NCBI GenBank assembly: GCA_035712525.1
Contig: DASTAO010000076.1
Location: forward strand, 1-25,680
Direction of reading: 5' to 3'
DNA length: 25,680 nucleotides
DNA from: Candidatus Kapaibacterium sp.
Lineage (GTDB): Bacteria > Bacteroidota > Ignavibacteria > Palsa-1295
In this document: piece by piece, positions 17,579-18,521 of the stretch
Layout: the number at the start of each line of letters is the position of its first letter
Numbering within the stretch: position 1 is the stretch's first letter
The notes under the pieces: model-generated
Database searches by the model: none
Seen by the model: the letters and a program-made list of their open reading frames with translations, nothing else
Told to the model about the DNA's origin: nothing
Position numbers and translations under genes: made by a program

Positions 17579-17854
17579 GTGAACCGGCAACTACTGGAGA
17601 TACTTAAACAACGAGAGGATTATCCTGTTTCTCGAAGTGATGAACCGACCGTCGAGTGGTTCGTCGAATATCTCGATCACAATTCTCTGTGGTTATTGCG
17701 CTACGATCTGGCAAGCGACCCGGTATTTATTTTTACGAATGAAGCCCAGCGATTTACTTTTACCCTCAGTCAGATAAAGGAGTACTATAACCAGTTGAAG
17801 TCGGGCAAGCCAATGGATTGGGAGAGCATTCCGTTCGAATACATTTCGAAATAG
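17579..17854 (+). CDS. Hypothetical 91-aa soluble protein
   Basis: GTG start, globular-like composition, 4 nt upstream of the FtsE-like gene on the same strand. Confidence 0.7.
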   Translation: MNRQLLEILKQREDYPVSRSDEPTVEWFVEYLDHNSLWLLRYDLASDPVFIFTNEAQRFTFTLSQIKEYYNQLKSGKPMDWESIPFEYISK

Positions 17855-17858
17855 CATT

Positions 17859-18521
17859 ATGATCGAATTCAAGAATGTGAGTTTTTCATACGATGGCGCT
17901 AGTGAGCCTGCTCTTCTCGATGTTTCGTTTCGTGTCGGCAAAGGCGAACTGGCAGTTCTTTCGGCAGCGACCGGATCGGGGAAATCCTCGGTTTTGAAAT
18001 TATTGACAGCCCAGGAGAAAGTAAATTCCGGAGAGATAACAGTGGGGAGCTACAAAGTATCAACATTGAAGCATTCAGATATTGCTTCGTATCGTCGAAC
18101 GATCGGCTGTGTCTTTGGTGACTTTCAACTCCTTGAAGAAAAGACCGTTTTTGAAAACATTGCCTTTGCCCTTGAAGTCCAATCGAAAGTGAAACGACAG
18201 AAGATCGGCGATCTTGTCGAATCAATACTTGATAGAGTGGGCATTCAATCCTTGAGCGATCAATTTCCGAGAGCCTTATCGCTCGGAGAGCGTCAACGGA
18301 CGGCGATCGCCAGAGCCCTTGTCACCGAGCCATTATTATTACTTGCCGATAATCCGACTTCGATGCTTGACGCCGAAAGCGCTCGGGGCATTTTGGATCT
18401 CTTTGCCATTGAACATTTTCGAGGCATGACCATTTTCATAACAACGACGGAAGTAGGGCCCATTGATGGTTTTCCACCCGATACAAAGTATCTTTCGTTA
18501 TCCTCCGGTCGAATAGTATAG
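17859..18521 (+). CDS. FtsE-like ABC ATPase domain with degenerate catalytic motifs
   Basis: Overall FtsE-like (MIEFKNVSFSY, YRRTIG.VF.DF.LL.EKTVFENIAFALEV) but altered Walker A, Q-loop, signature, Walker B and H-loop; no adjacent ftsX. Confidence 0.8.
   Translation: MIEFKNVSFSYDGASEPALLDVSFRVGKGELAVLSAATGSGKSSVLKLLTAQEKVNSGEITVGSYKVSTLKHSDIASYRRTIGCVFGDFQLLEEKTVFENIAFALEVQSKVKRQKIGDLVESILDRVGIQSLSDQFPRALSLGERQRTAIARALVTEPLLLLADNPTSMLDAESARGILDLFAIEHFRGMTIFITTTEVGPIDGFPPDTKYLSLSSGRIV

Follow-up and report, generated by a model that had tools for sequence, protein, structure and literature searches.

Can an FtsE protein that has lost the residues used for ATP hydrolysis still serve FtsX? This question is raised by a gene in a 25,680-nucleotide (nt) stretch of DNA from Candidatus Kapaibacterium sp. 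(Bacteroidota, Ignavibacteria; assembly GCA_035712525.1, contig DASTAO010000076.1, positions 1 to 25,680), referred to here at its full length as the window. The gene encodes a 220-amino acid (aa) protein resembling FtsE, the cytoplasmic ATP-binding cassette (ABC) subunit of the FtsEX cell-division complex. In the current model, a signal powered by the FtsE ATPase activates division-site cell-wall hydrolases via FtsEX, and a 2024 review of the system likewise describes signal transmission as driven by the ATPase activity of FtsE (PMC11627006). Whether it is the binding of ATP or its hydrolysis that carries the signal is still argued, and the systems of Pseudomonas aeruginosa and Mycobacterium tuberculosis differ in this respect (PMC10694151). 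An earlier note on the window described the protein as a pseudo-ATPase with all catalytic motifs altered in an intact open reading frame (ORF), lacking FtsX and paired with a 91-aa protein, and proposed that it had been repurposed as a nucleotide sensor or as a dominant-negative partner of FtsE and FtsX. The analysis reported here leads to a different view of its role, and we consider it probable, from the sequences compared below, that the protein is an ATP-binding, non-hydrolyzing FtsE that still serves FtsX.

An FtsE-type protein with altered catalytic motifs

The ftsE-type ORF starts with ATG and contains zero internal stops, its product beginning MIEFKNVSFSY, in agreement with the earlier description of a gene without frameshift or truncation. 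Residues 21-168 match PF00005 (ABC_tran) at 98.2 bits against a gathering cut-off of 25, and the top NCBIfam family is TIGR02673 (FtsE) at 201.9 bits, followed 64 bits lower by DevA at 138 bits. The FtsE score is below the curated equivalog cut-off of 264.85 for TIGR02673. Its derivation from FtsE, as proposed earlier, is borne out both by this ranking and by a sequence search of the PDB, in which the top 10 matches are all FtsE and the closest is that of M. tuberculosis (8idb/8jia; 157.7 bits over residues 1-219). The named proteins among the next-best database matches outside its own clade also carry FtsE annotation. An AlphaFold2 model built with 54 homologs has a mean predicted local distance difference test score (pLDDT) of 93.3 and a predicted template modeling score of 0.89, and a Foldseek search of the PDB with this model returned at the top FtsE chains from Escherichia coli, Streptococcus pneumoniae, Vibrio cholerae, and M. 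tuberculosis, with template modeling (TM) scores of 0.90-0.94 and root-mean-square deviations of 1.5-2.1 Å. The predicted fold is thus that of an intact FtsE.

Alignment to M. tuberculosis FtsE (8idb) and 37 canonical FtsE sequences reproduced every motif substitution listed in the earlier note. The Q-loop reads VFGDF for the canonical VFQDF (Gln to Gly), the signature LSLGERQR for LSGGEQQR (Gly to Leu), the Walker B motif and D-loop LLADNPTSMLD for LLADEPTGNLD (Glu to Asn, and TGNLD to TSMLD), and the H-loop TTTE for ATHD (His to Thr). Walker A reads AATGSGKSS, within SAATGSGKSS, for GPSGSGKST, the first Gly being replaced by Ala. The classical P-loop pattern is [AG]-x4-G-K-[ST], and because A-x4-G-K-S satisfies it, this last change appears mild and not a real degeneration; the statement that all catalytic motifs are altered therefore holds for the Q-loop, signature, Walker B, D-loop, and H-loop but was too strong for Walker A. 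Taken as a set, the catalytic ABC motifs (Walker B Glu, H-loop His, LSGGQ, and Q-loop Gln) are missing from the window protein, the P-loop, Walker B Asp, signature Ser, and D-loop Asp are kept, and, as judged from these motifs, the protein is very probably not an ATPase.

The only FtsE found in the genome and in the family

The assembly that contains the window comprises 2.8 Mb in 489 contigs and is 81% complete, and none of its ORFs scores above the FtsE cut-off of TIGR02673. Two ORFs, on contigs C377 and C252, reach 214 and 191 bits with the FtsE model, and the best family of both is LolD (244 and 260 bits, respectively). The same search was made across the window's family, which consists of Candidatus Kapaibacterium and allied genera and whose metagenome-assembled genomes (MAGs) are often labeled Ignavibacteriae or Bacteroidota. 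Canonical FtsE, in the sense of a TIGR02673 match above the cut-off, was found in none of 35 genomes from 9 genera, 24 of which are ≥90% complete. Most other families of the class have TIGR02673 matches of 235-278 bits, corresponding to canonical FtsE. Because no canonical FtsE was found in the 35 genomes searched, the window protein represents the only FtsE of the family, and the proposal that it acts as a dominant-negative partner of a canonical FtsE is not supported, as none was found in its own genome or in these relatives.

A search of 30 relatives recovered one clear ortholog per genome, with identities to the 220-aa protein of 60-64% within the same genus, 38-57% in other genera of the family, and 35-42% in other families of the class. 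When aligned, all of the orthologs from other families have canonical motifs, and all of those from the window's family have degenerate ones. In a tree of the best and second-best matches together with FtsE from outside, the proteins of the family form one clade, with a Shimodaira-Hasegawa-like approximate likelihood ratio test (SH-aLRT) value of 99, and the LolD/MacB-type paralogs form a separate clade (SH-aLRT 93) that includes orthologs from genomes with canonical FtsE. The family scores and the tree led us to reject a LolD/MacB-type paralog as the real FtsE. The probable orthology of the degenerate proteins to FtsE is based on profile scores, nearest matches, and one-for-one phyletic replacement. 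No second nucleotide-binding domain able to supply a consensus site was found either, each genome having a single FtsE-type gene and its other type VII ABC ATPases falling in LolD/MacB-like clades. At the one inspected ortholog locus of these other ATPases (L037, in genome G026), the ATPase has its own permease gene directly downstream. A metagenome scan returned no close relative of the protein, the results being mostly canonical FtsE from gut metagenomes at ~40% identity.

Order of the losses across the family

A residue census was made of 49 distinct sequences from the degenerate clade and the 37 canonical FtsE sequences. As the relatives are not independent, the 49 sequences represent one evolutionary event followed by later drift and not 49 replicates. 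Across the clade, the nucleotide- and Mg-binding residues stayed invariant: P-loop G39, G41, K42, and S/T43 are present in 48 of the 48 sequences having a residue there, and Walker B Asp164, signature Ser141, and D-loop Asp171 in 49 of 49, just as all of these are in the canonical set (37/37). A-loop Tyr11 is found in 39/49 clade and 31/37 canonical sequences. In contrast, the H-loop His occurs in 0/49 (the replacements being T, S, P, A, N, and V) against 36/37 with one gap among canonical sequences, and the third-position Gly of the signature in 0/49 (L, E, M, Q, H, or A instead) against 36/37. The catalytic Glu and the Q-loop Gln, both present in 37/37 canonical sequences, are retained in 8/49 (otherwise N in 15, G in 13, S in 10, D in 2, and C in 1) and 30/49, respectively, and the G-N of the D-loop (Gly in 37/37 and Asn in 36/37 canonical sequences) has mostly become S/A-Q. 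The alignment and the 49-member census together uphold the earlier observation that the residues for binding nucleotide and Mg are present and those for hydrolysis absent.

To place these changes in order, a second tree was built without the motif columns, on which the numbers of state changes are parsimony minima on a partly unresolved topology. The degenerate clade is monophyletic on this tree as well (SH-aLRT 100), the loss of the H-loop His and that of the signature Gly are single events at its base, and there are at least 7 state changes for the Glu and at least 8 for the Gln. The losses therefore began, at the base of the family, with the switch His and the signature Gly, each lost a single time, and the catalytic Glu and Q-loop Gln afterwards behaved as unconstrained sites, replaced repeatedly across genera. 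For the Glu and the Gln, several independent losses would be the safe wording.

It might be argued that the family's FtsE is still an ATPase, working slowly by a non-canonical chemistry (substrate-assisted or with another general base) within an FtsEX cycle that is conventional but slow. ABC ATPases with single motif changes often retain residual activity, and the census finds the Walker B Glu and the Q-loop Gln in some members of the clade. Such a reading has to contend with the absence of both the switch His and the signature Gly from all 49 members and with the state of the Glu position, which is N, G, S, D, or C in 41/49 and has the repeated changes expected of an unconstrained site, while the window protein itself combines Asn for the Glu, Thr for the His, Gly for the Gln, and Leu for the signature Gly. 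In M. tuberculosis FtsEX, an E-to-Q change alone abolishes the ATPase (PMC10694151), and a slow ATPase appears quite unlikely to us.

Neither do the invariant residues favor a nucleotide-independent scaffold, that is, a protein that only plugs FtsX structurally from the cytoplasmic side or serves as a tether to FtsZ or FtsA, and for which nucleotide binding is irrelevant. The hydrolytic residues are all gone or drifting across the clade, as a scaffold would allow, and the Gly-to-Leu change in the signature could prevent ATP-dependent closure of the dimer. However, no variation is seen across the clade in the P-loop G-x-G-K-[ST], Walker B Asp, signature Ser, or D-loop Asp, while neighboring catalytic positions drift, and because such selective conservation is otherwise hard to explain, nucleotide and Mg are probably still bound. 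We regard the scaffold as unlikely.

The same trend may have a counterpart elsewhere in the class. High-scoring FtsE is mostly or wholly missing from families f4 (0/12), f10 (0/2), and f19 (1/6), and one divergent FtsE of family f4 (L038, in genome G021) has the signature LSAGE with the Walker B Glu and the H-loop His intact. The f4 protein may be at an earlier stage of the trend or may have diverged independently.

Selection on the degenerate gene

Ratios of nonsynonymous to synonymous substitution (dN/dS) were calculated by the Nei-Gojobori method for pairs of close orthologs from two genera, with ribH as the control gene. In four close pairs, the ratio is 0.113, 0.032, 0.068, and 0.059 for the ftsE-type gene and, in the identical pairs, 0.065, 0.091, 0.039, and 0.039 for the adjacent ribH; for FtsX it is 0.05 (two pairs). 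Purifying selection on the ftsE-type gene is thus as strong as that on its housekeeping neighbors, as expected of a gene that is not decaying. On both trees, the branches of the degenerate clade are longer than those of canonical FtsE in sister families, and across the family the identity of FtsX declines in parallel with that of FtsE.

The loss of several catalytic motifs and the longer branches could also be taken as the marks of a decaying pseudogene or a relic under relaxed selection, which the earlier note had envisaged as a case of relaxed selection on one allele whose orthologs keep canonical motifs. The orthologs in the family are themselves degenerate, all 35 family genomes of the 9 genera carry the ORF intact and at a conserved length, and the structural model is confident (pLDDT 93). 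As far as sequence can tell, decay is ruled out by the dN/dS of 0.03-0.11, equal to that of ribH, together with the invariant nucleotide-binding residues, and we give it next to no credence.

FtsX, an EnvC-like protein, and an amidase

The absence of FtsX described earlier is true of the window and not of the genome. A single ftsX, encoding 287 aa with matches to FtsX_ECD (34.9-37.6 bits) and FtsX (25.6 bits), is located on contig C23 between surE and the genes for the membrane subunits of succinate dehydrogenase, with no ABC gene beside it. Of the canonical ftsEX pair that the earlier note would have looked for elsewhere in the genome, ftsX is therefore present, in one copy on another contig, and canonical ftsE is not. 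Of the 18 family genomes sampled, 16 have FtsX, in one copy each, and those that miss it are one genome at 95% and one at 70% completeness. The two genes are also unlinked in sister families with canonical ftsE, where ftsE follows pdxA, and because even canonical ftsE is separated from ftsX there, the lack of linkage is uninformative. A missing ftsX neighbor is normal for the class and says nothing special about the window protein.

The genome also encodes an Amidase_3 enzyme and an EnvC-like protein (Table 1), the latter found in 16/18 sampled family genomes, with misses at 70% and 67% completeness. By its domain composition, the EnvC-like protein has the architecture of EnvC. A reading of its LytM domain by eye suggests that two zinc-ligand histidines are missing, with NLGID in place of HxxxD and ILH in place of HxH, which would make it an activator and not a hydrolase, as is E. 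coli EnvC. In one genome of sister family f7 (G024, 100% complete), queries with FtsE, FtsX, and the EnvC-like protein were all without a match at the thresholds used, and a strong FtsE match was found in 0/4 genomes of that family. This may reflect the joint loss of a whole FtsE/FtsX/EnvC-like module in G024, a pattern that, as a single case, fits with these three proteins forming one functional module in the class.

Comparison with known systems

The closest known counterparts of the window protein are the FtsE proteins of FtsEX-EnvC-amidase systems (E. coli, 8hd0/8w6j; P. aeruginosa, 8i6o/8i6s; V. cholerae, 8tzj), with which it shares its fold (TM scores of 0.88-0.94), its length, and FtsE as the best profile family. 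The window's genome likewise has an FtsX with FtsX_ECD, a coiled-coil/M23 protein like EnvC, and Amidase_3, and its lineage is also diderm, with genes for a type IX secretion system and the outer membrane in the window. The window protein differs from these FtsE proteins in lacking the Walker B Glu, H-loop His, signature Gly, Q-loop Gln, and canonical D-loop, in its score below the curated FtsE cut-off, and in the separation of ftsE from ftsX in its genome, as in the whole class.

A closer parallel to the state of the protein is provided by mutants made in the laboratory. In M. tuberculosis FtsE, D164A eliminates ATP binding, E165Q leaves ATP bound and not hydrolyzed, and both abolish the ATPase (PMC10694151); the ATP-bound structures of FtsEX were obtained from E-to-Q mutants (8jia and 8w6j). 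In these trap mutants (M. tuberculosis FtsE E165Q, 8jia; E. coli FtsE E163Q, 8w6j), the catalytic Glu is replaced by an amide, as it is in the window protein, with Gln there and Asn here, and the P-loop and Walker B Asp are intact in both. In the window protein, unlike the mutants, the change is a natural one that a whole bacterial family has fixed and keeps under purifying selection, and the protein has also lost the switch His, signature Gly, and Q-loop Gln, all three of which the mutants keep. By analogy, we infer that the family's FtsE is a natural counterpart of the E-to-Q trap mutants.

Similar sites also occur in other ABC proteins. The degenerate sites of heterodimeric members such as CFTR (site 1) and TM287/288, in which the Walker B Asp is followed by a residue other than Glu, the H-loop lacks its His, and the signature is of the LSxGx type, hold ATP stably without hydrolysis, and the substitutions in the window protein are of a like kind. 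CFTR and TM287/288 pair the degenerate site with a consensus site on a different polypeptide, whereas the family's FtsE is a single gene in which all of the deviant motifs are found, and a homodimer would therefore have two degenerate and zero catalytic sites. The resemblance is probably one of working alike and not of membership. A literature search for a natural, catalytically degenerate FtsE found no paper, its coverage being incomplete, so that this is absence of evidence only.

A proposed mechanism without hydrolysis

We propose that the family's version of FtsE would still bind ATP and still dock on FtsX, encoded by its single unlinked gene, and that ATP hydrolysis would be absent or extremely slow. 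In a diderm lineage with an EnvC-type adaptor, FtsE would transmit an activating conformation to FtsX without hydrolysis, and FtsX would thereby direct and switch on cell-wall hydrolysis at the septum with no need for an ATPase cycle. FtsE may do this either as a reversible ATP-binding switch or as a permanently ATP-loaded scaffold, in which case the output would be controlled by recruitment to the divisome. One of these two modes seems the most likely because, in diderm FtsEX-EnvC-amidase systems, ATP binding and not hydrolysis drives the activating movement; in the FtsEX-EnvC-AmiB system of P. aeruginosa, activation is by ATP binding, and ATP-gamma-S is sufficient (PMC10694151; reviewed in PMC11627006). 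The altered signature and D-loop lie at the dimer interface around the gamma-phosphate and may weaken the ATP sandwich, which would permit reversible closure and release without hydrolysis. A more specific version, which we put forward tentatively and consider possible, is that FtsEX acts here as a hydrolysis-free ABC mechanotransmitter, in which reversible binding of ATP to a doubly degenerate dimer, tuned by the changes in the signature and D-loop, would be enough to turn both FtsX and the EnvC-like activator on or off.

Several points weigh against a non-hydrolyzing FtsE that serves FtsX. Both the binding of ATP and the missing hydrolysis are read from sequence, and the 8 clade members that retain the catalytic Glu might have weak activity. 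The Leu that replaces the signature Gly is bulky and could prevent the ATP-sandwich dimer from forming at all, leaving a protein that might bind nucleotide as a monomer or might not signal. On the tree, the deep node uniting the degenerate clade with FtsE lacks support, and, given the 81% completeness of the window's own genome, the lack of a second FtsE leans mainly on the 24 high-quality relatives. The ftsE, ftsX, and EnvC-like genes are unlinked, and the physical pairing of their products is putative. Hydrolysis-defective FtsE variants of E. coli block constriction and fail to support normal cell separation. In M. tuberculosis FtsEX-RipC, ATP binding alone does not activate RipC (PMC10694151; reviewed in PMC11627006). 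A hydrolysis-free cycle is, given these last two systems, not the rule.

The small protein p91 and the surroundings of the gene

The other features at this locus are collected in Table 1. The gene order given earlier was accurate: the 91-aa ORF, here called p91, ends 4 nt before the ATG of the ftsE-type gene and is followed, after that gene, by ribH, porZ, and a Zn-ribbon gene.

Table 1. Coordinates of the ftsE-type gene, its neighbors, and related sites in the genome
Feature	Coordinates	Strand	Remarks
Conserved 400-aa protein	15427..16629	+	No Pfam family
288-aa predicted outer-membrane protein	16632..17498	-	Signal peptide; divergent from p91; no Pfam match
p91, 91-aa gene	17579..17854	+	GTG start; family-restricted protein
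p91-ftsE junction (inversion-related site)	17855-17858
ftsE-type gene, 220 aa	17859..18521	+	ABC nucleotide-binding fold; best family FtsE
ribH (6,7-dimethyl-8-ribityllumazine synthase)	18595..19071	+	PF00885, 175 bits; start at ATG 18595 chosen by us (the listed ORF starts at GTG 18562)
porZ-like type IX secretion component	19068..21377	+	PorZ_N_b_propeller, 63 bits
EnvC-like protein, 442 aa	C408:6354-7679 (L168 475-1803)		Own genome; signal peptide, long coiled coil, C-terminal M23/LytM
Reciprocal junction, yraN and 283-aa gene (inversion-related site)	C433:2037-3417		Own genome
Inversion-related site	C148:2-1207		Own genome

It is clear that p91 is a real, conserved small-protein family restricted to the Kapaibacterium-like family. 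There are 31 homologs of 91-98 aa with identities of 58-91% and a mean column identity of 67%; with p91 as the query, it was found in 18/18 sampled genomes of the family and in 0/12 from the other families of the class. A set of 185,579 species representatives contained 28 loci, and their titles are nearly all Kapaibacterium, Ignavibacteriae/Ignavibacteriota, or Bacteroidota MAGs, with one Alphaproteobacteria. The dN/dS of p91 is about 0.10, and its AlphaFold2 model (pLDDT 95.2) consists of helix-helix, three strands, a helix, and a strand. Searches of p91 against Pfam and NCBIfam gave no match, those of its fold gave no convincing match in the PDB (best Foldseek E 0.09; best VIA-align Z 4.7, to a de novo designed protein), and one of the ESM Atlas returned nothing usable for function or fold.

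The pairing of p91 with the ftsE-type gene that had been suggested does not extend beyond the window's genome. In 18/18 other sampled family genomes carrying both, the two genes are unlinked, and synteny thus rules out p91 as a conserved partner of FtsE. The arrangement in the family is yraN-ftsE-ribH-porZ: a yraN-like (UPF0102) gene is the upstream neighbor of ftsE in every relative, ribH directly follows the ftsE ortholog in most family genomes, and the porZ-like gene comes after ribH. In most relatives, the 400-aa protein, a divergent signal-peptide protein of 283-343 aa, and p91 are encoded away from ftsE, and the 288-aa gene of the window belongs to this conserved left-hand neighborhood of p91 and not to that of ftsE. 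In the window's own genome, yraN is found on contig C433, followed by a 283-aa gene whose homolog follows p91 in the closest relative. Both new junctions are accounted for by a single inversion in this lineage, its breakpoints lying at yraN|ftsE and p91|283-aa gene. An assembly chimera at the p91-ftsE junction is unlikely, as both junctions are seen on independent contigs, the reciprocal one on C433. The gap of only 4 nt points to present co-transcription of p91 and ftsE in the window's species, which is a consequence of the rearrangement and not evidence for joint function. A scan of positions 16500-21800 for sigma-70 promoters gave an uninformative 14 promoter-like sites against 8.5 expected, in a phylum that also uses another promoter type.

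These surroundings bear on the idea that the protein has become a neofunctionalized ABC-fold protein that no longer works with FtsX and has acquired a new partner, such as p91 or the products of the ribH and porZ neighbors. An ftsE-type gene that never adjoins ftsX, an arrangement with ribH and porZ that is conserved in the family, and a position immediately downstream of p91, with its identical family-restricted distribution, could all be cited for it. Yet canonical ftsE of the sister families is just as distant from ftsX, p91 is unlinked in the sampled relatives, and a shared distribution at the family level is expected of any family-specific gene. Moreover, FtsX, which is under purifying selection, would otherwise be left without a partner of the ATP-binding fold, since the other MacB/LolD-type ATPases fall in clades common to genomes with canonical FtsE. 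A new partnership is, in our assessment, very unlikely.

Implications

With a non-hydrolyzing FtsE that serves FtsX as the favored reading, the machine and its fold are familiar ones, and what the family adds is their natural occurrence in a state otherwise made by mutagenesis alone. Automatic annotation gives the family's FtsE proteins as "cell division ATP-binding protein" or as a generic "ABC domain protein", neither of which conveys the probable lack of an ATPase. The family amounts to a natural experiment, in which a single discarding of hydrolytic residues was followed by drift, and the nucleotide-binding residues, FtsX, and the EnvC-like partner were kept under purifying selection. Its members, which span from the loss of only the switch His and the signature Gly to the added loss of the Glu and the Gln, provide a natural set of sequences for asking whether FtsEX can function on ATP binding alone, and they show which positions of FtsE matter apart from catalysis. 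If FtsEX does act here as a hydrolysis-free mechanotransmitter, nucleotide occupancy or divisome partners, and not an energy-consuming cycle, would gate septal hydrolysis in these bacteria, and hydrolysis in canonical FtsEX would be a device for timing or reset and not the source of the signal.

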